32,684 bases of DNA, from NCBI RefSeq assembly GCF_009649845.1, contig NZ_WJIE01000009.1:1-32684 (forward strand). Direction: 5' to 3'. Position 1 is the first letter of the stretch; every line of letters starts with the position of its first letter. Positions 4,388-25,744 of the stretch are shown here, piece after piece. Both the position numbers and the translations under genes were made by a program. Below the pieces are notes generated by a model. The model was not told where the DNA came from. It saw only the letters and a program-made list of their open reading frames with translations, and made no database searches. Source of the DNA: Polyangium spumosum. Its GTDB lineage: Bacteria; Myxococcota_A; Polyangia; Polyangiales; Polyangiaceae.

Positions 4388-4569
4388 GGGGGGTTTGCTG
4401 CTGCGTCTGCCGCGCGTTTCGAGCGTGGTGTCCAGGTCGCGGTAGCGCAGCCGAGTTTGTCCGTCGCCGGGACCTTTGATGGCTGTTTCGTAGCTTCGAG
4501 GCTGATGCTCGGTTCGTGGAGCGCGCGGGGAACGAGCCCTGTGCACCCGTAGGAGCCGGAGGAATATCG

Positions 4570-8697
<4,128 letters not shown>

Positions 8698-8703
8698 TGC
8701 CGA

Positions 8704-13044
<4,341 letters not shown>

Positions 13045-13102: not shown

Positions 13103-13144
13103 ACACGCCCGCCCTTTCACGAGGCGCGGGCGTGTGGTTTTTTT
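13103..13144 (+). terminator. rho-independent terminator of the rplKAJL-rpoBC transcription unit
   Basis: A perfect 10-bp GC-rich stem, ACACGCCCGC (13103-13112) with GCGGGCGTGT (13126-13135), has a 13-nt loop and is followed by GG then TTTTTTT (13138-13144). A second nested hairpin without a U-tract precedes it at 13054-13083 (GGTAGG..AGGCCG-tc-CGGCCT..CCTACC). Confidence 0.8.
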
Positions 13145-13251
13145 GTTCGGCCTGGTACGCGCCACTCCCTGCCGATCTGCCGGATGACTGCTGCTTCGGC
13201 GGGTCCAGGGATCCCCCATCCTTGCGGACATGTACTATCTCTGGTCTCGCG

Positions 13252-15432
13252 ATGTCCGTGCACGGCACCAACCAGCGTGTCGCTGATCGCCTGCTCTCCG
13301 AGGGCCGGATCGGGGCCGAGGAGCATCGGCGCGCCGTGGAGCACGCGAGCCGCCAGCGCGGCCGCATCGAGGACGCGCTCGTCGAGCTCGACATCGTGCC
13401 CGAAGGGGACCTGCTCAAGTACGTCGCGACCCTGCACAACACGCGGTTCGTCTCGACCGAGAAGCTCTCGAAGGCCGCCATCGAGCCTCGCGTGCTCGGG
13501 CGCGTCTTGCCGAAGACCGCGAAGATGCACGGCGTCTTCCCGGTGCTGCTCGACGAGGCGAAGTCGGTGCTCTCCGTCGTCACCGCCGATCCCGACAACG
13601 ACGCGGCGATCCACGAGGTGAAGCTCGCGGCGGGCGTGCGCGAGGTGCGCGCGCTCGTGGCCCGGCCGGCCGCGGTGCGCGCGGCGATCGCGCGGCATTA
13701 CTTCAAGGAAACGTCGGCCTTCGAAGCGCTCCTCCGGCCTGTCGCGACGGCCGCGCAGACGGGGGATTTCATCGACATCGATCTCGGCCCCGCGCCTGCG
13801 CGTCCTGCCACCGGGCCCGTGCCGACGCCGGCCGCGTCGCCGCGCAGGTCGGCCTTGCAGCCGCCTCCGCCGCCGCGCGCGCCGATGCCCACGGCGCCCT
13901 CGGCGACCGGACAAACCAGCCCCTCGGGCGCGCGCGAGCAGACGCAGCCCTCGGTGCACACGGGCAGCACGCAGCCCTCGGTGAACGGCGGGCCCCCGCC
14001 TCCTGTCGCGGCGAGCGCGCAGACCTCGCCCACGGGCGGCCACGCGCCGCCCACGCAGGCCCGCCCGCAGCTCGCCCCGCCGCCTTCACCGACGCCGCCG
14101 CCTCCTCCCGTCCCGGTCCTCACGCCGATCGAGACCCACGAGTACGTCGAGACGCTCAACGTCCTCGTCAGCTTGCTCGAAGCGAACCGGCAGGACCTAC
14201 GTGGCCACTCGGCCGTCGTCGCGCGCCTCGTGCGTCGCACGTGCGAGCGCATCGGCCTCGCGCCTGCGCATGTCGCGGCGTTTGTCGTGGCGGCCTACCT
14301 GCACGACCTCGGCAAGATGGGCGCGTATCACCTCACGGCGCTAAACGTCGCCGAGTACGAGGGCCACAGGGTCGCGGGGCTCAAGGCCGTCGCGCTCCCG
14401 GCGCAGCTCATGGGCTCGGTGGGCTTGCCGGCGGAGAGCATCGCGGCGCTGCAGGCCATGTACGAGCGGTACGACGGCCGCGGCTTGCCGCATGGCCTCG
14501 CGGGCAAGGAGATCCCGCTCGGCGCGCGTATCCTCGCCGTCGCGGACACCTACGCCGACCTCACGCAGAACCCGCGCAACCCCTTCCGCAAGATCCTGCG
14601 CCCGCCCGAGGCGTGTGACGTGCTTGCCGGGTATCGCGGCACCGTCTTCGATCCGAACATCGTCGACCTCTTCCGCCACGAGGTCACGGGTGACGACATG
14701 CGCGCGCGGCTCCTGTCCGAGCGGTACACCGTGCTCGTCATCGACCCGGATCCCGAGGAGACGACGGTGCTCGAGCTCCGGCTCATCGAGCAGGGCTTCG
14801 AGGTGCGCGTCGCGCGGACCGTGGCGCAGGCGTGGCGTGAGCTCGAGGGCGGCGAGATCGCGGCGGTCGTCAGCGAGATCGACCTCGAGGAGCCCGAGAT
14901 GGGCCTCGCGCTCCGGGCGGACGCGCAGAAGGAGTCGTGGGGTCGCGGGATCACGTGGGTGATCCTCACGCGCAAGAACGACAAGCACAGCGCGCAGAAG
15001 TCCTTTGATCTCGGCGTCGACGACTTCGTTTCGAAGCCGACGTCCGCGGACATCTTCGCGGCCAAGCTCCGTCAGCTCGTCGAGCGTCGGGTCGCGCGTG
15101 GTGGCGGGCGCGGCGTGGCGGGATCCCTCGCGGAGATGAGCATCCCGGACATGGTCCAGGTCCTCTGGCATGGCCGCAAGACGTGCGCGCTGCGTATCCA
15201 GACGGGCAAGGGCACGGGCGAGATCCACTTCGCGGAGGGGCAGATCGTGGACGCGCGCTGGGAGCAGGTCTTCGGCGAGGAGGCCTTCTACCGCATGATC
15301 GCGCTCGACGAGGGCGAGTTCCGGCTCGAGCCCGACGTCGAGCCTACGGGCCGCACGATCGCCGTCTCGCCCGAGGCGCTCTTGCTGGAGGGCATGCGCC
15401 GCCTCGACGAGGGCATGCTCCACGCGCCGTGA
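13252..15432 (+). CDS. multidomain c-di-GMP-type signalling protein: GspE-N/MshEN-like N-domain, Pro-rich linker, HD-GYP-like domain, response-regulator receiver, C-terminal DUF4388
   Basis: A single long high-GC3 frame. Residues 10-150 show a duplicated RLGxxLLxxGxI...Q pattern (VADRLLSEGRIGAEEHRRAVEHASRQ and RIEDALVELDIVPEGDLLKYVA), typical of T2SSE_N/MshEN. The Pro-rich linker is ~130 aa. The HD motif is AAYLHDLGKMG. A GYP-like motif YERYDGRGLPHGL is degenerate versus HHExxDGxGYP. The receiver runs RYTVLVIDPDPEE...VVSEIDLEEPEMGLAL...ILTRKNDKHSAQKSFDLGVDDFVSKP. DUF4388 is SLAEMSIPDMVQVLWHGRKTCALRIQTGKGTGEIHFAEGQIVDA. The track start at 13132 overlaps the rpoC terminator, so the ATG at 13252 is preferred. 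Confidence 0.85.
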   Translation: MSVHGTNQRVADRLLSEGRIGAEEHRRAVEHASRQRGRIEDALVELDIVPEGDLLKYVATLHNTRFVSTEKLSKAAIEPRVLGRVLPKTAKMHGVFPVLLDEAKSVLSVVTADPDNDAAIHEVKLAAGVREVRALVARPAAVRAAIARHYFKETSAFEALLRPVATAAQTGDFIDIDLGPAPARPATGPVPTPAASPRRSALQPPPPPRAPMPTAPSATGQTSPSGAREQTQPSVHTGSTQPSVNGGPPPPVAASAQTSPTGGHAPPTQARPQLAPPPSPTPPPPPVPVLTPIETHEYVETLNVLVSLLEANRQDLRGHSAVVARLVRRTCERIGLAPAHVAAFVVAAYLHDLGKMGAYHLTALNVAEYEGHRVAGLKAVALPAQLMGSVGLPAESIAALQAMYERYDGRGLPHGLAGKEIPLGARILAVADTYADLTQNPRNPFRKILRPPEACDVLAGYRGTVFDPNIVDLFRHEVTGDDMRARLLSERYTVLVIDPDPEETTVLELRLIEQGFEVRVARTVAQAWRELEGGEIAAVVSEIDLEEPEMGLALRADAQKESWGRGITWVILTRKNDKHSAQKSFDLGVDDFVSKPTSADIFAAKLRQLVERRVARGGGRGVAGSLAEMSIPDMVQVLWHGRKTCALRIQTGKGTGEIHFAEGQIVDARWEQVFGEEAFYRMIALDEGEFRLEPDVEPTGRTIAVSPEALLLEGMRRLDEGMLHAP

Positions 15433-15595: not shown

Positions 15596-16966
15596 ATGAA
15601 GCTCCTTCGCGCCTTCGTTTTGTCCTTGCCGCTCCTCGCCGCGCCCGCGCTCTACGCGGGTGACGCCGACGCCTGCGGCGGCTGTACCGTCGTGCAGTCG
15701 GAGAACACGCAGGTCACCGGTCATCGGATGATCCTTTCGATCTCCAACGATCGGACGACGCTCTACGATCAGATCACCTACGCGGGCAACCCCTCCTCCT
15801 TCGCGTGGATCCTGCCCATCAAGGGCGAGGTCGACGTCGGGCTCTCGTCCGACGCGGTCTTCAACGCGCTCGAGCAGGCCACGCAGATCTCGGTCGTCTC
15901 GCCCTCGATCAACTGCCTGCCGCCTGGCTGCGCGGGCGCGCCGAACGCGGGCGGCGACTTCGACAACGCGGGATCGGGCGGCGCGGGCGGCGGCGGCGTC
16001 GAGGTGATCGCCGAGGAGGTCGTGGGTCCGTACGCCACGGTGCAGCTCTCGTCGCAGGACCCGAACGCGCTCGCGAACTGGCTGCTCTCGAACGGCTACT
16101 ACGTCCCGCCGGACATCAAGCCCGTCATCGACGCCTACGTGAACGAGGGCTTCAACTTCCTCGCCCTCAAGCTCGTGCCTGGCGAGGGCGTCAACTCGAT
16201 GCGGCCCGTGCGTATCTCCTCGCTCGGCGCGCAGCCGACCTTGCCTCTGCGTATGGTCGCCGCGGGCACGGGCGCGATCACGCCGATCACCTTGTGGATC
16301 CTCGGCGAGGGCCGGTACGAGCCGACGAACTTCCCGAGCTTCCAGATCAAGGCCCAGGATCTCGTGTGGAACTGGGACACGCAGTCGAGCAACTACACGG
16401 ACCTCAAGAAAAAGAGCTTCGACGCGTCGGGCGGCAAGGCGTGGCTCATCGAGGCGGGCCAGCCGTTCTCGAGGTACTGGATCGAGGACAACCTGAAGTG
16501 GACGGCCCAGAACGACCCGGAGAACAGCGGCTACGGCGGCGATCCCATGGGGCCGAGCGCGCTCGACGAGTGTGTCGAGGACCTCGACACGCTCTTCGGC
16601 TCGATCCCCGAGAACACCCTCTGGTTGACGCGCATCCACGCCGAACTCTCGCGCCCCGCGCTCGCGACCGATCTCACGCTGGGCGCGTCGGCCGACCAGT
16701 CGCACGTCGAGCGATGGCTGCAGGTCGAGAACGCCATCGGCACGCCGCCCGCATGCCCGCCCCCGCCGGACTGGTGCTTCGATCAGGACATGCCCGACGT
16801 GAACCCGTGGGACAACGGCGTCGGCGTCGGGGCGGACGACCCGAACGCCGGCACGAAGAGCAACGCGAGCTGCGCCATCCGCGGCGAGGCGAGCATGCCT
16901 GCGACGCTCGGGCTCCTCGGCGGCGCGCTGGTCCTCTCGGTCGCGCGTCGTCGTCGGCGTCGTTGA
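15596..16966 (+). CDS. secreted DUF2330-like protein with C-terminal MYXO-CTERM sorting signal
   Basis: N-terminal signal peptide is MKLLRAFVLSLPLLAAPALYAGDADACGGC. The conserved central region (FAWILPIKGEVDVGLSS...YVPPDIKPVIDAYVNEGFNFLALKL) recalls PF10092/DUF2330; this is from memory and unverified. The C-terminus, ...NASCAIRGEASMPATLGLLGGALVLSVARRRRRR, has Cys, a hydrophobic helix and an Arg tail as in MYXO-CTERM. GGAG lies 9 nt upstream of the ATG. Confidence 0.85.
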   Translation: MKLLRAFVLSLPLLAAPALYAGDADACGGCTVVQSENTQVTGHRMILSISNDRTTLYDQITYAGNPSSFAWILPIKGEVDVGLSSDAVFNALEQATQISVVSPSINCLPPGCAGAPNAGGDFDNAGSGGAGGGGVEVIAEEVVGPYATVQLSSQDPNALANWLLSNGYYVPPDIKPVIDAYVNEGFNFLALKLVPGEGVNSMRPVRISSLGAQPTLPLRMVAAGTGAITPITLWILGEGRYEPTNFPSFQIKAQDLVWNWDTQSSNYTDLKKKSFDASGGKAWLIEAGQPFSRYWIEDNLKWTAQNDPENSGYGGDPMGPSALDECVEDLDTLFGSIPENTLWLTRIHAELSRPALATDLTLGASADQSHVERWLQVENAIGTPPACPPPPDWCFDQDMPDVNPWDNGVGVGADDPNAGTKSNASCAIRGEASMPATLGLLGGALVLSVARRRRRR

Positions 16967-17051
16967 TCGCCTGTCTTGCCGTTTCCTTCGGGTCGCCCTA
17001 GCCTCGGATCAGGCGTGGACCGTGTCATGCGGCCGCGACCCGGAGGAAAAC

Positions 17052-17984
17052 ATGTACGGTCCCAAAGGTCAGAGCAGCGGCGGCGGGCGTCCGGCTGCGG
17101 CTCCCAAGAAGATCACCGTGCCGGACATTCGCGCGCGCAAGGCGAACGGACCGCCGATCGCGATGGTGACGGCCTACGACTTCACGATGGCGCGGCTCTT
17201 CGACGAGGGCGGCGCGGACATGCTGCTCGTCGGCGACTCGCTCGGCATGGTCGTGCAGGGGCACCCGACGACGTTGCCCGTGACGGTCGAGGAGATCTGC
17301 TACCACGGCCGCGCGGTCGCGCGTGGAGCGCGGCGCGCGCACGTGGTGGGGGACATGCCGTTCATGAGCTTCCAGGTCTCGGCCGTGCAAGCGCTGGAGA
17401 ACGCGGGCCGCCTGATGAAGGACGGCGCGTTCGAAAGCGTGAAGATCGAGGGCGGCGAGGAGGTGGCCGAGCACGTGCGCCGCATCGTCGCGGCGGGCAT
17501 CCCCGTGATGGGGCACGTGGGTTTGACGCCGCAGTCGGTGCACGCGATGGGCGGCTTCAAGGTGCAGGGCAAGGGCGAGGACGCCGCGGCGCGCCTCCTT
17601 CGGGACGCGCAGGCGCTCGACGAGGCGGGGGCGTATGCGATCGTGCTCGAGGCGATCCCGCCGGACCTCGCCGAGGAGATCACGGCGGCCGTGTCTGTCC
17701 CGACGATCGGCATCGGCGCGGGCGCGGGTTGTGATGGGCAGGTGCTCGTCTGTTACGACATGCTCGGCATGTACCCGGAGCTGCGCCCGAAGTTCGCGAA
17801 GCGCTTCTCCGAGGTGGGCGAGCAGATCATGGCGGCGACACGTGCGTACGTGGACGAGGTGCAGGCGCGCACGTTCCCTGGCGCCGAGCACAGCTTCAAG
17901 CCGAACGGCCCGCGCCGCGCGCCGCCGTCGGCCGAGCCCGCCGTGGCGCTGGAGGAGATTCCTCCGCACTGGCAGACGCATTAG
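17052..17984 (+). CDS. panB: 3-methyl-2-oxobutanoate hydroxymethyltransferase (ketopantoate hydroxymethyltransferase)
   Basis: KITVPDIRARKANGPPIAMVTAYDFTMARLFDEGGADMLLVGDSLGMVVQGHPTTLPVTVEEICYH...GIPVMGHVGLTPQS... are PanB signatures. The track ORF begins at 17022, but the ATG at 17052 has GGAGG 5 nt upstream. A ~45-aa Pro-rich C-terminal tail follows. Confidence 0.9.
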   Translation: MYGPKGQSSGGGRPAAAPKKITVPDIRARKANGPPIAMVTAYDFTMARLFDEGGADMLLVGDSLGMVVQGHPTTLPVTVEEICYHGRAVARGARRAHVVGDMPFMSFQVSAVQALENAGRLMKDGAFESVKIEGGEEVAEHVRRIVAAGIPVMGHVGLTPQSVHAMGGFKVQGKGEDAAARLLRDAQALDEAGAYAIVLEAIPPDLAEEITAAVSVPTIGIGAGAGCDGQVLVCYDMLGMYPELRPKFAKRFSEVGEQIMAATRAYVDEVQARTFPGAEHSFKPNGPRRAPPSAEPAVALEEIPPHWQTH

Positions 17985-18083
17985 CCTCACCCCCCATCCC
18001 CCTCTCCACTCCGTGAAGAGGGGGAGAATAAGCGCCTCTTCCCCCCTCTCCACGGAGTGGAGAGGGGTTGGGGGTGAGGCTCA
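17982..18083. repeat. compound palindromic element: two inverted ~42-bp units of a small repeat family (stop-GCCTCACCCCCARCCCCTCTCC-loop-GGAGAGGGG)
   Basis: Unit a (17982-18024, forward) is tAGCCTCACCCCCCATCCCCCTCTCCactccgtGAAGAGGGGG. Unit b (18042-18083, reverse) is CCCCTCTCCacggagtGGAGAGGGGTTGGGGGTGAGGCTCAG. Together they form a ~31-bp-arm near-perfect inverted repeat (17985-18014 with 18050-18079, one mismatch) around a 35-nt spacer. The panB TAG stop sits in unit a and the Cys-rich gene TGA stop in unit b. Confidence 0.55.
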
Positions 18084-19112
18084 GTTGCAGTCGATCCCGC
18101 AGATCAGCCCGACCTCGCCGATGCAGATCCCGTCCCAGTTCTGCTCGCAGCAATAGGGATCGGCCTTGCACACGGCCTCCGCGCACGGGTTGCACGTCGG
18201 ATCCAGCGCGCCGCCGTTCTGGCAGATCGAGTGCGCGCAGTTGCAGCTCACGCCGCACTTCATGGTCGCCGCCGCCACGCACGCCTCGTCCCAGCCCGTC
18301 GTGCAGCATTCGGGCTGATCCATGCACACCGACGTGATGCACGGATCCGCGCCGCAGAGCGTGTCGGCGAGGTAGGAGCACGCTCCGCTCCACGGCGCGC
18401 TCGAGCCCATGCCGCAGCAGGCCGGGTCCTGCATACACACCTCGTCCACGCACGACCCGCGACAAACGTTCGGGTCGAGCGCCGCGCCCGTGCCGCAGAC
18501 GGAGTGCGGACACTCCGGGCACGGACCACAATCCTGCGCGCACGTCCCGCAGTCCTCGCCGCCGTTGCACGTGCCGTCGCCGCAGGCGCAGGCGCCGCAG
18601 TCGTTCGGGCACGAGTCACACGTCTCGCCGTTGCACTCGCCGTTGCCGCAGCAGCCGGCGCTGCAGAGCTCGTCGGCGAGCGCCACGCAACCCGCCCCCC
18701 AGAAGTTGTCGCAGCAGCCCTGGCCGTTCTGCGCGTTGCAGACCTGATCGACGCACGCATTACAGCCCAGCGTGAGCGCGTCGCCGACGCTGCAGACCGC
18801 GTGCTGGCAGGTGTCGCCGCCGCCCGACGAGGACGACGAGGCGGACGACGACGAGGACGAGGACGCGCTGGACGATGAGGACGAGGCCGCGCTCGAGCTC
18901 GACGCGCTCGACGAGGACGACGCCGTGCTCCCGGACGAGGACGACGCGCTCATGCCGCCCATGCCGGCCATGCCGCCCATGCCGCCGCTCCCCCACGTGC
19001 CGCCTTCGCCGCCGCCGCCCTGGTTGTTCGGCGTGCCGAAGAGGTCCCGGCCGTCGGCCGTGCACCCGGCCGCGGCGAGCGCGGCGATCGCGAAGAAGCT
19101 TGTGAATCGCAT
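18081..19112 (-). CDS. secreted modular Cys-rich lipoprotein (poly-Ser linker, myxo-type Cys-rich repeat, four copies of an uncharacterised ~45-aa Cys module)
   Basis: The track ORF is 18081..19133 (TTG). The preferred ATG gives MRFTSFFAIAALAAAGC, a signal peptide plus lipobox, with GGAGGA 8 nt upstream. A Gly/Ser-rich linker with ~45 consecutive Ser/Ala follows. Next is CCGNGECNGETCDSCPNDCGACACGDGTCNGGEDCGTCAQDCGPCPEC, which resembles the Myxococcales CGNG...CDDGN Cys repeat. Four modules then fit C-x-H-[AS]-[VI]-C..G-ALDP-x-C..C...VC..DP-x-CC...W[DS]..C (CQHAVC..., CPHSVC..., CITSVC..., CAHSIC...). There are 60+ Cys in total. Confidence 0.8.
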   Translation of the reverse strand: MRFTSFFAIAALAAAGCTADGRDLFGTPNNQGGGGEGGTWGSGGMGGMAGMGGMSASSSSGSTASSSSSASSSSAASSSSSSASSSSSSSASSSSSGGGDTCQHAVCSVGDALTLGCNACVDQVCNAQNGQGCCDNFWGAGCVALADELCSAGCCGNGECNGETCDSCPNDCGACACGDGTCNGGEDCGTCAQDCGPCPECPHSVCGTGAALDPNVCRGSCVDEVCMQDPACCGMGSSAPWSGACSYLADTLCGADPCITSVCMDQPECCTTGWDEACVAAATMKCGVSCNCAHSICQNGGALDPTCNPCAEAVCKADPYCCEQNWDGICIGEVGLICGIDCN

Positions 19113-19178
19113 GTCCCGACTCCTCCGAGGCAAGGAGCGCGATGCTACCGCGCCCGAGCCGCCTCGTGCGCATCTTCT

Positions 19179-19219
19179 CCCCTCTCCGCGTGCGGAGAGG
19201 GGCTGGGGGTGAGGCTCAG
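19179..19219. repeat. third copy of the same palindromic element family (reverse orientation)
   Basis: CCCCTCTCCgcgtgcGGAGAGGGGCTGGGGGTGAGGCTCAG. The CCCCTCTCC/GGAGAGGGG 9-bp stem and the GGGGGTGAGGCTCAG tail match unit b at 18042-18083. The TGA of the BatA-like gene (19216-19218) lies inside GGCTCAG. Confidence 0.55.
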
Positions 19220-21225
19220 GCTGCCGCCGAACCCTCGCGCTTTTGCCCCACCGCGCGCAGGAACAGCTCCAGCACGACCAGGCCGAGCAGCCCGAGCGCC
19301 ACGTAGGGCGACGCGTCGATCGACGGCACGACGCCCCCGAGCTCCTCCGCGCGCGCCGCGTCGACGACGCGCCGCGGCCGCAGATCGATCTCGCGCTCCG
19401 GCACCGTCGCGACCCGGATCACCCGCTCGCCGTCGAGCCGCACCTCGTACCGACCTCGCAGCGGCGCCACCGCGCGGCGGCGCCCGTCCTGCTCCACGAC
19501 CGGGATCGTCCGGCGCGCCTCGCCCGCGCCGACGGGCAGTCGCTCGACCGCCACGTCCTTGAACCCGTCGAACGTGAACGCGTCGCCGACCTCGATCTGC
19601 CGCGCTCCGCCCCGGGCCCGCGCCGTGCCCACGAAGCGATCGAGCAGCGCCAGGAAGGCCGGACGCAAAACGAAGTCGCTCTCCTCCACCGTGAGCGGCA
19701 GCGACAGCACGTAGACCGCCCCGCGGCCGAGCGAGCGGCGCAAGAGCAGCGGCGCCCCGTCGTCCCAGCGCGCGAGCACGTCCGCGTTCGTCAGGGCGGC
19801 CGGATCGAAGGACGCGCGTCCGTCGGGCGAGAGCTTGGCCAGGCCCTCCGCGCTTGGCCCGAAGAACACCGCGCTCGTGGGGTCCGCGCCTTGCGACGGG
19901 CTCGCCCCCCAGCGCACCACGCCCGGCACGAGCGGGTCGAACCCCGCGCCGAGCGGCGCCGTCGCGGCGCGTGGACCGAGCGTCAAGAGCAGCACGCCCC
20001 CGCGCTCCACCCACGCCGCGAGCGAGCGCCGCACCTCCGGCGTGAAGCCCGGCACGTCGTCCACGACGAGCCCCGCGAACGCCGACAGCTCCTCCGCGTG
20101 GTCCGGCACGGCCGGCAGCGGGCGCACCTCCGCGTCGAGGTGCATCGCCGCGAGGGCCTGCTCGATCGGCGGCGGCCCGCCCGTGGCCACGTGCGAGGAC
20201 GCCACGTCCACCACGACCGCGATCGGCAGCGCCCCGCCGGCCGCGACCACCGGCGCCTCGTCGTCCTCCAGGATCGTGTCGCCCGGCGTCAGCCCGACCG
20301 TGAGCTCCGCCGGCGCGCCCGCCGGCACGTCGAGCGAGATTTCTTCGGCGCGGACCGCCGCCCCGAGCGGCGCCGAGGCGAGCACCTTGCCCTCGCCGCG
20401 GAGCTCGATCGAGCGCCCGGCCGAGGCGGAAGCGGCGCCTGCGGCCTCGGGGCTACACACGACCCGCGCCCGCACCTTGCCCGCGCGCCCGTCCGCGCGT
20501 GTCACCGCGCAATCGCCGCCCGTGGCTTCGAGCTCCGGCACGGGCGCCCAGAGCGCCGCATCCGAGCCGCCGCCGAGGGGCGGCGCGCTCGGCGCCCCGT
20601 CCGCGAGGTCGCTCAAAAGCACCACCCGCCGATCGGCGTGGGGCACGCGGAGCAGGAGCTCCCGCGCCAGGGCCAGGGCGCCTTCCAGGTCGGTCGCGCG
20701 ATCGGACGGCTCGATCATGTCGAGCGCGCCCGTCACGGCCGTCATGTTCGTCGTCGCGGCGAGCGCCACGCGCGCGGGCGCGCCGCCGAGCACCACCGCG
20801 ACCGCGTCGCCGCTGCGTAGCCCCGTCGCGAGCTCGCGCGCCGACGCGAGGGCCCGGTCGAACTTCGTCCGCTTGCCCGGCCCGCCTGGCCCGCCCTCCA
20901 GCGGCGCGCGCATGCTGAGCGAGTCGTCGATCACGATCGCCAGCGCCACCGACGCCCCGTCCTTCCGGGCCAGGCCGAGCCGCGCGCAGCGCACGAACGG
21001 CGTCGCGCCGAGCACGGCCAGCAGGAGCACGCTGAGCGCTCGCACCGCGAAGAGCGAGCGATCCTCGAGCATGCTGCGCCGCCGGGCCATGGGCTTCGTC
21101 GGCGGGACGAGTTTTGCCGGCGGGAACGGCTGCTCCTCGGCCTGCCTTCGCCGCAGCATGTGGGCCGCGATCGGCGCGGCGACGAGCAGCGCCACGAGCA
21201 GCCCGGCGATCGTGGTGAAGCTCAT
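19216..21225 (-). CDS. BatA-like membrane von Willebrand factor A (VWA) domain protein
   Basis: The track ORF runs to 21747, but its Arg/Gly N-terminal 170 aa are GC artefact. The ATG at 21223-21225 overlaps the DUF58 stop (ATGA). It gives MSFTTIAGLLVALLVAAPIAAHMLRRRQ...LLLAVLGATPFV, a BatA-type N-terminal two-helix anchor. The VWA domain has the MIDAS motif ALAIVIDDSLSM. A C-terminal hydrophobic helix VALGLLGLVVLELFL is present. ~670 aa. Confidence 0.8.
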   Translation of the reverse strand: MSFTTIAGLLVALLVAAPIAAHMLRRRQAEEQPFPPAKLVPPTKPMARRRSMLEDRSLFAVRALSVLLLAVLGATPFVRCARLGLARKDGASVALAIVIDDSLSMRAPLEGGPGGPGKRTKFDRALASARELATGLRSGDAVAVVLGGAPARVALAATTNMTAVTGALDMIEPSDRATDLEGALALARELLLRVPHADRRVVLLSDLADGAPSAPPLGGGSDAALWAPVPELEATGGDCAVTRADGRAGKVRARVVCSPEAAGAASASAGRSIELRGEGKVLASAPLGAAVRAEEISLDVPAGAPAELTVGLTPGDTILEDDEAPVVAAGGALPIAVVVDVASSHVATGGPPPIEQALAAMHLDAEVRPLPAVPDHAEELSAFAGLVVDDVPGFTPEVRRSLAAWVERGGVLLLTLGPRAATAPLGAGFDPLVPGVVRWGASPSQGADPTSAVFFGPSAEGLAKLSPDGRASFDPAALTNADVLARWDDGAPLLLRRSLGRGAVYVLSLPLTVEESDFVLRPAFLALLDRFVGTARARGGARQIEVGDAFTFDGFKDVAVERLPVGAGEARRTIPVVEQDGRRRAVAPLRGRYEVRLDGERVIRVATVPEREIDLRPRRVVDAARAEELGGVVPSIDASPYVALGLLGLVVLELFLRAVGQKREGSAAA

Positions 21226-22157
21226 GCCCGCGCCTCGGCCACGGCGCGCACCACGTCGCGCACCACGTCGGCGGGGGGCCTGTCCGTCGTCGCCTCCACC
21301 CAGCGCCCGCCTCGGCCCGAGAGCTCCCTCGACCAGCGCTCGGCGATCGCGGCGAGCCGCTCGCGGTAGATCGCGCGCACCTCCTCGGCGTCCGTCTCGA
21401 CGACCACGTCGCCCTCGCTCGCGCGTAGCCGCACGTGCCCGGAGAAGCCGAGATCCGCCTCGTTCGGGTCGAGCACCCGCACCGCCACGAGCGAGCGCCC
21501 GCCGGCCGCGAGCGCCGAAAACGCCGAGAGCGCCCGCTCGGGCAGGTCCACGAAATCGCTCACCAGCACGATCACCGCGCCGCGCCGGGCGCGCCGCGCC
21601 ACCGGGGCGAGGGCGCGCTCCATCGCGGCCTCGTCTGCGCTCGCGTCGCCTGCGGCTGCGGCCCCTTCGAGCGCGCCGGCCACCCTGTCGAACGCCTCGC
21701 GCCCGCTCGACGCCGGCAGCGCGAGCGTCCCTCGCCCGCCGATCCACGCGAGCCCCACGGGATCGCCGCTCGACAGCGCCACGCGCGCGAGCGCCGCGGC
21801 CACGAGCGCCCCGTACGCGAGCTTCGCCCCGGGGGCCCGCGTGCTCCGGTAGGCCATCGACGCGGTCGCGTCCACGCAGAGCCAGAGCGCGCGATCCGTC
21901 TCCGTCTCGAACTCGCGGATCATCATCCGGTCGTGCCGGAGCAGCGCGCGGCGGTCGAAGAACCGCAGATCGTCGCCGGGCACGTAGGGCCTGTGCCCGC
22001 CGAACTCCACGCCGGGCCCTTTTCGAACGCTCCGGTGCCCTCCGGCGTACACGCCTTCGGCCAGGGACCGGGCGCGGAGGCGCAGCGGCGCGAGGCTGCC
22101 CCAGTCGATGGGGATCCCGTCCTTTCCGGACCGCGACGAGGGGCGAGGCTCGGCCAT
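21222..22157 (-). CDS. DUF58 family protein (MoxR-associated VWA-like partner)
   Basis: GHRSVRKGPGVEFGGHRPYVPGDDLRFFDRRALLRHDRMMIREFETETDRALWLCVDATASMAY is the DUF58 signature. The preferred start is ATG at 22155-22157 (MAEPRPSS...). It is translationally coupled to the downstream BatA-like gene. Confidence 0.85.
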   Translation of the reverse strand: MAEPRPSSRSGKDGIPIDWGSLAPLRLRARSLAEGVYAGGHRSVRKGPGVEFGGHRPYVPGDDLRFFDRRALLRHDRMMIREFETETDRALWLCVDATASMAYRSTRAPGAKLAYGALVAAALARVALSSGDPVGLAWIGGRGTLALPASSGREAFDRVAGALEGAAAAGDASADEAAMERALAPVARRARRGAVIVLVSDFVDLPERALSAFSALAAGGRSLVAVRVLDPNEADLGFSGHVRLRASEGDVVVETDAEEVRAIYRERLAAIAERWSRELSGRGGRWVEATTDRPPADVVRDVVRAVAEARA

Positions 22158-22224
22158 GGGGGATCGTTCAATTACCCCAACGCGGAGGGCCCGCCACGAC
22201 AAAACTTGTGGCAAGAGTGGGCCT

Positions 22225-22620
22225 GTGCGCGACAAGTTCGGCGGCTCTTTCCGCGGGGTCCTGCTCGCGACGCTCCTCGTATCGTGCGAGACCGCCGAAC
22301 CCGAGCCGGCGCCCGCGCCGCCCTTCGCGCCCTCCGCGTCGGCGGCGCCCGCGGCGCCCGTGCTGCCGCGGCGCCCGACGGTCCGCCATTACCTCGCGCG
22401 CAAGGACGAGCGTTGCGAGGTCTACGCGGTCGACGGTGATCGTGTCTCCGCGGCCACGCGGACCCCGTGCCCGCAGGATCTCCAGGTCGGCGAGCGAATC
22501 CGCGTGATGGGGAAATCGTGTATGCGGGAGGGCATCGCCGAGCGGGCGCAGCCGGTCGTCTGCCCCGGAGCGCTCCTGACGGCGGCGACGCCCCCGGATG
22601 TGGATGCCGGGGGGACCTGA
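22225..22620 (+). CDS. small secreted lipoprotein with 5 Cys (hypothetical)
   Basis: An in-frame GTG inside track ORF 22108..22620 gives MRDKFGGSFRGVLLATLLVSC, a signal peptide with LVSC lipobox. GC3 is very high. The mature part is Cys-containing: CEVYAVDGD...TPCPQD...GKSCMREG...VVCPG. It is divergent from DUF58. Start is uncertain; the alternative ATG at 22156 gives an implausibly long n-region. Confidence 0.55.
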   Translation: MRDKFGGSFRGVLLATLLVSCETAEPEPAPAPPFAPSASAAPAAPVLPRRPTVRHYLARKDERCEVYAVDGDRVSAATRTPCPQDLQVGERIRVMGKSCMREGIAERAQPVVCPGALLTAATPPDVDAGGT

Positions 22621-24009: not shown

Positions 24010-24025
24010 TGAGGACCGACGCGTG

Positions 24026-25744
24026 ATGAACCAGCGGCAGATCCTGGCTTTTGTCGAGAAGCTCCGGCAGGCGCGGACCTTCGAGGACGCCGCGCAGGCC
24101 ATGCTGCGCGGGATGCTGGACGCGGCGAACGAGGCGCTCGGGGCGAGCGGGTTCGCGAACCGAGGCCGCATCCTCCGCGGCATGGCGCATCTGCGGCCCG
24201 GCGACGGCTACCGGCGATTGGTGCTCGTCGACGACGCCCACCGGAGCGGCGAGCCCGTGATCCACCATCTGCCCTCCGCGAGCGCGTGGCGGTGGATCGT
24301 CACGCGGGGGCGCCCCATTGCGCTCGACGTCCCGCTCGGCCGCGTGTGGACGCTGGAGGACGATGCGCCGAAGGTGCTCCAGGAGGGCGGGTTCTCCGGC
24401 CAGGACAGCGTGCTGCGATTGACGAACCGCGACACGAGCCACCTCTATGCGGTCCCCCTGCGGGCCTTCCACGGCGCGATCGAGGGGATGGCGACGGTCG
24501 AGGCGGCCTGCCCGCGGGCCGTGGGCGACGATTTCATCTTCCCGGCCCTCCACGAATCGCTCGAGGTCCTCGCCGACCTCGCGGCGCCTTATCTCGCGAC
24601 CTTGCCCTTGCGGCCTGTGACGGGTGGCGCCACGGACGAGCTCTTGCCGGTCATTGGCCAGACCATGGCGGGCTTGATCGAAATGCTCCGGGTCTTCGCG
24701 CAGCAGGAGGAGACCTTGCTCATCGGCGGTCCGACGGGGGCGGGCAAATCGCGGCTGGCGCGGTGGTGCCATGCGCAATCGGTCCGGCGGGGGGCGCCGT
24801 TCGAGGTGCTCGACCTCATCGCCGTGCCCGAGGAGCTCCAGATGGCGGAGCTCTTCGGCTGGAAAAAGGGCGCCTTCACGGGCGCGGTGCGCGACACGCC
24901 GGGCTGCATCACGCGGGCGTTCAAGGGGACCTTGTTCATCGACGAGATCGACAAGCTCTCGCTGAAGGCGCAGGCGGGCTTGCTCCAGCTCCTCGAATCG
25001 CGGACGTATCGCCCGATCGGGGACGGGGCGCGGGAGCAGCAGGCGAACGTGCGCTTCATCGTGGGCAGCAACGTCGACCTGTACGATCAGGTGAAGGCGG
25101 GCCGTTTCCGGGAGGATCTTTATTATCGGATCAACGTGCTGCCCTTGAAGATCCCCCCGCTCGACGAGCGGCGGGACGAGGTGGCGGAGTGGGCGCGATT
25201 CATGGCGGTGCGGCGTCATCGTGAATCGGTGCCGGGCGGAGAGGTGCGAATCCTGGCGGGGGCGGAGCGGCTGCTGGCGGAGCACACGTGGCCGGGGAAT
25301 TTGCGGCAGCTCGACAACGTGGTGCGGCGGGCCTACGCGCTCGCGTTGATGACGCATGGCCAGGCGGGGGCGGAGGTCGTGCTGGAGGAGAAACATTTCG
25401 CGCGGGCCTTGAGCTACGAGCGCGGGAGCGAGCGGCGGTCGGCGCTGGAGGCGCTACGCGGCGCGGCGGAGGCGCTGGTGGAGGAGGCGGAGCGGCTGGA
25501 GGCGAAGGGGCAGGGGCTCGAGCTGGAGGTATGCGACGCGTTCCGCGGGATCGTGCTGGGGACGGCGGTGGAGAAGCTCGGCAGCCGGGACGCGGCGTTC
25601 CGGCTGTTCGGGAAGGGCGCGCAGGTGCAGGCGCGCAATCACCACAAGATGTTGCGGCGCGAATGGGAGAAGGTGGAGGCGCTCTGCAAGGCGCTCGGGG
25701 AGGAGGGAGCGCCGTTCAAGGGGATGGGGGAGGAGGAGGGGTGA
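24026..25744 (+). CDS. sigma-54-dependent transcriptional activator (GAF-like N-domain, AAA+ sigma-54 interaction domain, degenerate C-terminal HTH)
   Basis: Walker A is LLIGGPTGAGKSRLAR. The GAFTGA motif is WKKGAFTGA. Walker B/ESR is TLFIDEIDKLS...RFIVGSNVDL...EDLYYRINVL. The ATG is 14 nt after the kinase stop and follows GAGGA, fitting an operon with the Ser/Thr kinase. Confidence 0.9.
   Translation: MNQRQILAFVEKLRQARTFEDAAQAMLRGMLDAANEALGASGFANRGRILRGMAHLRPGDGYRRLVLVDDAHRSGEPVIHHLPSASAWRWIVTRGRPIALDVPLGRVWTLEDDAPKVLQEGGFSGQDSVLRLTNRDTSHLYAVPLRAFHGAIEGMATVEAACPRAVGDDFIFPALHESLEVLADLAAPYLATLPLRPVTGGATDELLPVIGQTMAGLIEMLRVFAQQEETLLIGGPTGAGKSRLARWCHAQSVRRGAPFEVLDLIAVPEELQMAELFGWKKGAFTGAVRDTPGCITRAFKGTLFIDEIDKLSLKAQAGLLQLLESRTYRPIGDGAREQQANVRFIVGSNVDLYDQVKAGRFREDLYYRINVLPLKIPPLDERRDEVAEWARFMAVRRHRESVPGGEVRILAGAERLLAEHTWPGNLRQLDNVVRRAYALALMTHGQAGAEVVLEEKHFARALSYERGSERRSALEALRGAAEALVEEAERLEAKGQGLELEVCDAFRGIVLGTAVEKLGSRDAAFRLFGKGAQVQARNHHKMLRREWEKVEALCKALGEEGAPFKGMGEEEG

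Follow-up and report, generated by a model that had tools for sequence, protein, structure and literature searches.

The 32,684-nucleotide (nt) stretch analyzed here (positions 1 to 32,684 of contig NZ_WJIE01000009.1 from Polyangium spumosum; below, the window) contains on the minus strand, at 18081-19112, a gene whose predicted product combines a lipoprotein signal, a long low-complexity linker and a head built of small repeated modules, in which one residue in five is Cys. This raises the question of what such a protein does and to which family, if any, its module belongs. By its correspondence with the annotation of homologues, the module belongs to the Pfam family PF26780 (DUF8252), which is catalogued without a function, and the reading preferred here, with a probability of about 0.55, is that the protein is a membrane-tethered outer-membrane lipoprotein displaying a non-catalytic binding array. 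The two components of this reading differ in strength: the anatomy of the lipoprotein is near-certain, and a binding role of the DUF8252 array has roughly even odds. The features of the gene and its product are as follows.

18081-19112, minus strand: coding sequence of the DUF8252 lipoprotein, 343 amino acids, stop codon at 18081-18083 (list of open reading frames and translation)
19120-19126, minus strand: Shine-Dalgarno-like GGAGGAG, 7 nt 5' of the ATG at 19112 (read directly in the sequence)
19062-19112, minus strand: predicted lipoprotein signal peptide MRFTSFFAIAALAAAG with Cys17, lipobox AAGC (PS51257-type regular expression)
18825-19022, minus strand: low-complexity tether, Gly/Met-rich residues 31-54 and Ser/Ala-rich residues 55-96 (composition)
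18651-18809, minus strand: DUF8252 copy 1, divergent, residues 102-154, 10 Cys (profile, 40.6 bits, E 1e-14)
18513-18650, minus strand: two tandem CGxG repeats, residues 155-176 and 177-200, 6 Cys each (sequence)
18339-18512, minus strand: DUF8252 copy 2, residues 201-258, 10 Cys (profile match at 201-255, 40.6 bits)
18243-18338, minus strand: truncated DUF8252 copy, residues 259-290, 6 Cys (profile, 32.5 bits, E 5e-12)
18084-18242, minus strand: last DUF8252 copy, the third of the full type, residues 291-343 at the extreme C-terminus, 10 Cys (profile match at 292-341, 66.5 bits, E 1e-22)

The region 18081-19112 is a genuine, conserved Polyangium gene. The open frame containing it spans 18081-19133 on the minus strand with the ATG at 19112, the close homologues P0001 and P0002 begin at the identical Met, the GC content at third codon positions is 0.93, and the full-length homologues of the protein number about 40. 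A spurious high-GC open reading frame was considered and ruled out by the deep conservation, the conserved Cys residues and the Shine-Dalgarno site; the overlapping frames on both strands yield Arg/Ala-rich junk translations.

The N-terminus has the features of a signal peptidase II substrate, namely a basic residue, a hydrophobic stretch and a lipobox of the form [LVI/A][ASTG][GAS]C within the first ~35 residues. In particular, MRFTSFFAIAALAAAG|C matches the PS51257-type lipobox expression (PROSITE), and the lipobox Cys is retained in every full-length orthologue, lipidation thus being predicted at Cys17. In Myxococcus xanthus, Lys in position +2 after the lipidated Cys sends lipoproteins to the inner membrane and Ala in position +7 sends them to the matrix, while the A27D variant of FibA, with Asp in position +7, stays in the outer membrane (PMC3222651). 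The window protein has Thr, not Lys, in position +2 and Asp in position +7, and so under the M. xanthus rules it should be an outer-membrane lipoprotein; delivery to this membrane, by analogy, is likely.

Directly after the lipobox there is a segment starting with CTADGRDLFG, then a Gly/Met-rich stretch of 24 residues, and then the Ser/Ala tract (residues 55-96), comprised of 33 Ser, 7 Ala, 1 Gly and 1 Thr. The linker of 45 Ser and Ala residues proposed in the preliminary description of the locus, which had been made from the sequence alone, is therefore present as a tract of 42 residues, but it is only the second part of the tether. Both the length and the composition of the tether differ among orthologues. 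Even relative to the 98%-identical P0001, it carries small in-frame indels (GGMGGMAGMGGM versus GGMGGMGGM, plus two extra Ser), consistent with slippage in the repetitive TCG/TCC/AGC tract.

The head consists of 246 residues, 48 of which are Cys (20%), and shows no sign of a catalytic domain. Its units are arranged in the order DUF8252, two CGxG repeats, DUF8252, truncated DUF8252, DUF8252, with 10, 6, 6, 10, 6 and 10 Cys, respectively, the number being even in every unit. The profile used for the matches listed above was an independent one, built of 623 modules from other proteins only (P0083 onwards, coming from the search of cluster representatives described below and from a Haliangium query), although some of these modules may derive from orthologues of the window protein. 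Since four matches were obtained with this profile, the module repeat is real, far beyond chance, and, judging by sequence, the head is composed of three full copies of a module of ~52 residues and one truncated copy. Four copies sharing one invariant pattern had been described initially. The number of matches agrees with this count, but the third copy is incomplete, as its match (residues 256-289, with DPC shared with copy 2) covers only positions 17-50 of the profile, and both CxHxxC and ALDP are absent. Likewise, the pattern is complete in copies 2 and 4 (copy 2 has a 4-residue insertion before Trp), but not in copy 1, where ALTLGC, NGQGCC and W-G replace the expected ALDPxC, DPxCC and W-[DS].

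All 33 aligned homologues keep this arrangement of units, nearly all Cys of the head and the Cys of the lipobox being invariant. The four DUF8252 copies represent four distinguishable subtypes, and the order of the subtypes is strictly conserved among the aligned homologues. A functional "head" marked by differences in conservation between the copies was considered and rejected, as non-Cys conservation is similar in all units.

The family of the module was established indirectly. Scans of Pfam and NCBIfam with the whole protein, the head and single units gave only noise, and the matches to Sporozoite_P67 (E 9), Mst87F (E 4.7) and ElaB (19.8 bits versus the cutoff of 139) were dismissed as spurious. 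The Pfam copy used in these direct scans predates PF26780, since homologues carrying precomputed PF26780 also gave no match there. Precomputed PF26780.1 is found on the 98%-identical P0001 and on P0002-P0040 (about 45 homologues overall), and the contig look-up names this family as DUF8252. Among 82 proteins, PF26780 and the module are both present in 43 and both absent in 39, with no discordant cases; moreover, two proteins of ~90 amino acids made solely of modules carry PF26780. The annotation thus follows the module and not the CGxG repeats, none being found on proteins with CGxG repeats only. The DUF8252 signature, C-x-H-x-x-C...G..L...C-x-x-C-V-x-x-V-C-x-x-D-P-[FY]-C-C-x3-W-D-x-x-C-V...A...C-G-x-x-C (10 Cys), is represented by full-length profile matches at residues 102-154, 201-255 and 292-341. 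Hence the module is, by sequence, PF26780, with membership established via the precomputed annotation of homologues and not via a direct match of the Pfam hidden Markov model (HMM).

This assignment changes one of the earlier claims and leaves its companion in place. The preliminary description stated that the module fits no family, and named a confident Pfam hit covering it as the observation that would remove the novelty. Such a hit, in the letter, exists in PF26780; since this is a family of the DUF type, only the claim of an unplaced module falls, while that of an uncharacterised one stands, as no function, no published description and no solved relative were found (literature searches on the names PF26780 and DUF8252 returned no paper). 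The window protein shows no family-level difference from DUF8252; what is its own is the lipoprotein architecture with 3.5 copies. The lipoprotein member is therefore new, and the family is already known, catalogued without function, structure or literature. As the module has a Pfam accession and the orthologues are already deposited as hypothetical proteins, this is no new kind of system.

In an alignment of 64 modules, ten Cys, H4, L13 and W36 are invariant, and G10 is nearly so. In a broader set of 590 distinct full modules, the ten Cys are conserved along with H3 (in 98%), Gly (in 97%) and Leu (in 96%), D-P-[FY] precedes CC in a conserved manner, and W-D is conserved in 99% and 89%, respectively; apart from Cys, conservation across phyla thus amounts to 88-99% at the H, G, L, D, W and D positions. 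In addition, there are ~700 instances of the C-terminal sub-module alone, VC-x-x-DP-F-CC-x3-WD-x-x-C-[VA]-x-x-A-x3-C. It occurs as an independent repeat in hundreds of other proteins, and the truncated copy in the window is one such repeat.

The AlphaFold2 model of a single module, made with the 64-module alignment, has a predicted local distance difference test score (pLDDT) of 97 and a predicted template modelling score of 0.79. In it, a short beta-hairpin precedes three short helices, and conserved Trp, Leu and Val form a hydrophobic core. For the whole head, modelled with 33 homologues, pLDDT is 85.5; it exceeds 90 from copy 2 through the last copy and falls to 62-77 in the CGxG spacer. 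The modelled fold has no solved relative found so far, the best E-values being 1.1 in a profile hmmsearch of all PDB sequences and 6.8 in a Foldseek search with the whole-head model. Thus, of the searches suggested at the outset, the HMM-based one led to a Pfam family through homologues, and the structural one to no PDB relative. The even Cys counts, the lipoprotein export and the confident, compact model fit a disulfide-stabilised extracellular fold, in general agreement with the disulfide-knotted one proposed before, of which the knot itself is hypothetical; the 48 Cys of the head, likely oxidised, would presumably form 24 disulfides.

The second repeat of the head, CGxG, has a length of 22-24 amino acids and the pattern CG[DN]GxC-x3-5-E-x-C-x2-C-x2-DCGxC with 6 Cys. 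A CGNG repeat of "myxo type" had been noted here before; it is present as two tandem CG[ND]GxC repeats (residues 155-176 and 177-200), and the label has no counterpart among Pfam or NCBIfam models, none of which matched the repeat in scans or in precomputed annotations. The number of CGxG copies varies among orthologues. The 39 collected proteins without DUF8252 (within P0041-P0082) carry 2-7 copies each, and in some of these CGxG-only proteins the repeats are joined to a CAP/SCP, CARDB, SH3_3 or Big domain. CGxG may thus be an uncatalogued repeat family.

The distribution of the module was studied with a 51-position profile of the 64 modules against 1.84 billion cluster representatives (clusters at 50% identity), which yielded at least 3141 proteins at E <= 1e-3, 1189 of them also at E <= 1e-10. 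Copy numbers reach 33 in a single protein, and lengths reach 3470 amino acids; a word-index search with a 53-residue module profile, such an index being weak on short queries, returned two proteins. The named carriers are Myxococcota (Haliangium, Sorangium, Polyangium, Kofleriaceae, Nannocystaceae), Phycisphaerae and other Planctomycetota, type IX secretion system (T9SS) cargo proteins of Flavobacteriales, and the chytrid fungus Blyttiomyces. All named members are annotated as hypothetical, except for one "T9SS type A sorting domain-containing protein" and one "photosystem II stability/assembly factor-like" protein. In 172 of the 293 collected proteins the module ends within 5 residues of the C-terminus. 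Its fusion partners include enzymes (Trypsin, Phosphoesterase, InhA-like MAM), adhesion- or binding-type domains (Kelch, VWA, PA14, PKD, HYR, CBM96, LTD) and sorting or anchoring domains (Por_Secre_tail, i.e. the T9SS tail, and Dockerin_1); where the N-terminal domains of DUF8252 fusion proteins are unannotated, NCBIfam models yielded no informative match. Elsewhere, therefore, the module is an accessory unit of extracellular proteins, usually C-terminal and often tandem, which makes binding or adhesion its most likely role here.

Two groups of carriers are of separate interest. The proteins P0087 and P0198 of Blyttiomyces sp. JEL0837 contain up to 10 DUF8252 modules, and their termini look eukaryotic; this suggests a putative cross-kingdom spread of the module, with contamination of the assembly as a possible source. 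About 19 large proteins among the cluster representatives (~700-1560 amino acids; e.g. P0098, P0113, P0123, P0167), most of them without a Pfam match, form a family of their own; they have internal DUF8252 copies and share the conserved C-terminal motif W-[DEK]-[ILV]-[ST]-Y-S-C.

According to the preferred reading, the protein would be exported via the Sec pathway, processed by signal peptidase II, lipidated at Cys17 and, without Lys in position +2, delivered to the outer membrane, where a disordered Gly/Ser tether of ~80 residues would hold out a head of small disulfide-locked units. Each DUF8252 unit would pack round its invariant Trp, and would also offer the invariant His, Gly and Leu and two near-invariant Asp, while spacing would be provided by the CGxG repeats and the Ser tract. 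The array may then serve in adhesion or, without catalysis, in the multivalent binding of a polymer or a partner protein, either in the matrix or on the cell surface.

Several considerations weigh against this reading. The searches brought up neither a published experiment with a DUF8252 protein nor a relative by fold whose function could be transferred, the conserved Trp, His and Asp could be purely structural, and the head may face the periplasm rather than the surface. The sorting rules stem from Myxococcus, which belongs to a different suborder. Furthermore, any Pfam partner was seen in just ~15 of the 59 scanned proteins, most partners being unannotated, and thus the pattern of an accessory binding module rests on few cases. 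A broader version of the binding hypothesis is less probable: DUF8252 would represent a new disulfide-rich fold and a new class of extracellular ligand-binding modules (e.g. for glycans or cell-wall polymers) common to Myxococcota, Planctomycetota, Bacteroidota and chytrid fungi, the Polyangium protein would be a multivalent surface lectin or adhesin for contacts with the matrix, kin or prey, and CGxG would be a second undescribed extracellular repeat family. The window protein is a clean minimal example of DUF8252, since apart from its lipid anchor and tether it consists of little else than the module. If one module were solved and its ligand found, thousands of secreted proteins of predatory and of polymer-degrading bacteria would gain an annotation, and the recognition of matrix, kin or prey by myxobacterial surfaces might become clearer; being large, spread over bacterial phyla and a fungus, and having no PDB neighbour, the family is a reasonable target for structural genomics.

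In its general design the module resembles several well-known ones. The small carbohydrate-binding modules hevein/CBM18 and CBM14, as well as TIL, EGF, anaphylatoxin, PSI and CFEM modules with 6-10 Cys, have ~40-55 residues, multiple disulfides and conserved aromatic residues, and are found in tandem or at the C-termini of secreted enzymes. DUF8252 is similar to these modules in size, disulfides, aromatic residues and tandem or C-terminal placement; still, the window protein matched none of the Pfam HMMs of EGF, anaphylatoxin, TIL, hevein, PSI, CFEM and LNR, nor did it show a similar fold. Tandem Cys-rich repeats are also typical of the myxobacterial envelope and surface proteins represented by TraA (TIGR04201) and by the "Myxococcus cysteine-rich repeat" TIGR02232/DUF4215. 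For TraA, the surface receptor of M. xanthus, it was proposed that the repeats are oxidised and form a rigid stalk (PMC3325183). Unlike these proteins, the window protein has no PA14 domain and no MYXO-CTERM tag, is anchored by an N-terminal lipobox, and contains a CGxG unit of 22-24 residues with 6 Cys. Neither the whole protein nor the head nor the CGxG region matched TIGR02232, DUF4215 or TIGR04201 at E <= 10, the presence of both TIGR models in the scanned NCBIfam being unconfirmed, and a literature search on the name TIGR02232 found no paper. Finally, the sequence of a lipobox, a long low-complexity tether and a folded head acting away from the anchoring membrane is reminiscent of Gram-negative outer-membrane lipoproteins with long disordered N-terminal linkers (bioRxiv 10.1101/2021.01.05.425367), such as E. 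coli LpoB and RcsF, but the heads are unrelated, and the tether here is formed by 80 residues of Gly/Ser type.

The choice between the binding hypothesis and its alternatives depends in part on the neighbourhood of the gene.

19216-21225, minus strand: upstream neighbour, protein with a BatA N-terminal domain and a VWA domain, start inferred at MSFTTIAG (Pfam BatA, VWA_2)
21222-22235, minus strand: DUF58 gene, overlapping the start of the BatA/VWA gene (Pfam DUF58, E 2e-38)
17022-17984, plus strand: panB (ketopantoate hydroxymethyltransferase), convergent downstream gene (Pfam Pantoate_transf, E 7e-114)
17984-18080, no strand assigned: near-perfect palindrome of ~95 nt made of two inverted GCCTCACCCCC..CCCCTCTCC hairpin copies, between the convergent genes and directly after the stop of the DUF8252 gene
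19170-19215, minus strand: third copy of the hairpin element, directly after the BatA/VWA stop and 58 nt 5' of the ATG

Six Polyangium genomes share the order DUF58 - BatA/VWA - DUF8252 gene, followed by convergent panB, DUF2330 and an HD/response-regulator gene (the related loci were sought with an alignment of seven sequences). The head is 83-84% identical, and the full-length protein 74-79% identical, in P. jinanense, P. fumosum and three further Polyangium isolates; a 98%-identical copy is present on a Logan contig. The flanking genes are mostly 89-95% identical to their Polyangium orthologues, DUF2330 being at 78-80%, and hence the lipoprotein changes faster than most neighbours, as exposed proteins typically do. 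Across Polyangiaceae, no neighbour is better conserved than panB.

Adjacency to the BatA/VWA gene, which in the window as well as in six Polyangium genomes is the next gene upstream and has the same orientation, may point to a periplasmic partnership: as a lipoprotein of the inner leaflet of the outer membrane, the protein would extend its head, by means of a tether like that of E. coli LpoB or RcsF, to the periplasmic VWA domain of its BatA-like neighbour in the inner membrane, with a conserved Asp possibly engaging the metal ion-dependent adhesion site. A disordered N-terminal linker is described for about half of the E. coli outer-membrane lipoproteins (bioRxiv 10.1101/2021.01.05.425367), a VWA-domain gene is located at most three genes upstream in the more distant loci L002, L004 and L005, and VWA domains occur on a few large DUF8252 proteins (only a few of the 59 scanned). 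Outside Polyangium, however, the adjacency is not kept: in L004, a more distant Polyangiaceae metagenome-assembled genome, two genes, one of them divergent, intervene, and the VWA genes in L002 and L005 belong to a different type, with neither BatA nor DUF58. Since the upstream VWA genes change type or are separated farther out, the operon linkage is not conserved, and since the most constant neighbour is panB, an unrelated housekeeping gene, the linkage to BatA/VWA may be plain synteny. Given also the strong hairpin element between both genes in the window and the occurrence of the module on clearly extracellular proteins of other phyla (T9SS cargo, dockerin-bearing proteins), such a partnership is unlikely. 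The variable number of CGxG copies and the variable tether length, giving the protein the appearance of beads on a string, would suit a surface spacer or matrix component of purely structural nature that binds no specific ligand, similar to the stalk role proposed for the TraA Cys repeats (PMC3325183). But a stalk normally presents something, while the distal end here is DUF8252 alone; together with the strictly conserved order of the four distinguishable subtypes and the 88-99% conservation of H, G, L, D, W and D across phyla, this makes a mere spacer distinctly unlikely.

The abundance of Cys (48 in 246 residues) and the single His per module, conserved in 98% of 590 full modules in position 3, bring to mind metal binding or buffering, with Cu, Zn or another metal chelated as in metallothioneins or MopE, a role for which the preliminary description had taken the His as a possible hint; one DUF8252 protein, P0086, also carries the Cu-binding_MopE domain PF11617. 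The lipoprotein, however, is exported into an oxidising envelope, every unit has an even number of Cys, the widespread truncated sub-module has no His at all, and the predicted compact helical fold with its Trp, Leu and Val core is unlike metallothioneins; as, moreover, no metal-binding family was matched in the Pfam and NCBIfam scans of the window protein, this function is very improbable. The size and Cys density of the module also recall known inhibitor and toxin scaffolds, and the least probable of the explanations considered is a tethered array of protease or other enzyme inhibitors (10-Cys, TIL-like) or of membrane-active peptides, displayed on the surface or vesicles of a predator. It agrees with the module adjoining trypsin-like and InhA-like protease domains and with the transfer of myxobacterial lipoprotein toxins by outer-membrane exchange, as described in PMC5562445 and PMC8546572, but HMM and PDB searches brought up no inhibitor or toxin family that is similar in sequence or fold, the gene belongs to the syntenic core as a single copy and has no immunity-like gene next to it, and the C-terminal fusion of the module to many non-protease domains favours a general binding role.

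The wider surroundings of the gene look like a chromosomal core, with plus-strand frames at 4516-13044, 13132-15432, 15596-16966 and 24023-25744. Two long plus-strand frames are probably rpoB and rpoC, judging by rpoC at the matching position in L001; they are followed by genes for a MshEN-HD-response regulator-DUF4388 protein, a DUF2330 protein and a sigma-54 activator. In the metagenomic relative L005, DUF2330 is triplicated beside panB.

The hairpin element, GCCTCACCCCCARCCCCTCTCC-N6-7-GGAGAGGGG, begins exactly at the TGA stop codon of both the BatA/VWA and the DUF8252 genes. It was not found at any of the orthologous Polyangium loci, where the gap between the BatA/VWA and DUF8252 genes is roughly 40-65 bp. 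The RNA fold of the palindrome has an energy of -85.3 kcal/mol (z -9.8), and the only Rfam models that the flanking hairpins resembled, all below threshold, were those of microRNA hairpins, as for a generic long hairpin. Lying between convergent genes, the palindrome is probably a bidirectional terminator or an insertion resembling repetitive extragenic palindromes (REP). An exact 22-mer of the element occurs in more than 120 metagenome stretches with GC contents from 0.33 to 0.70, in some of them as inverted pairs, and thus the element looks like a very widespread terminator hairpin similar to REP or to miniature inverted-repeat transposable elements. When translated, it produces the "SLTPSPSP...RGEG" tails of spurious open reading frames.

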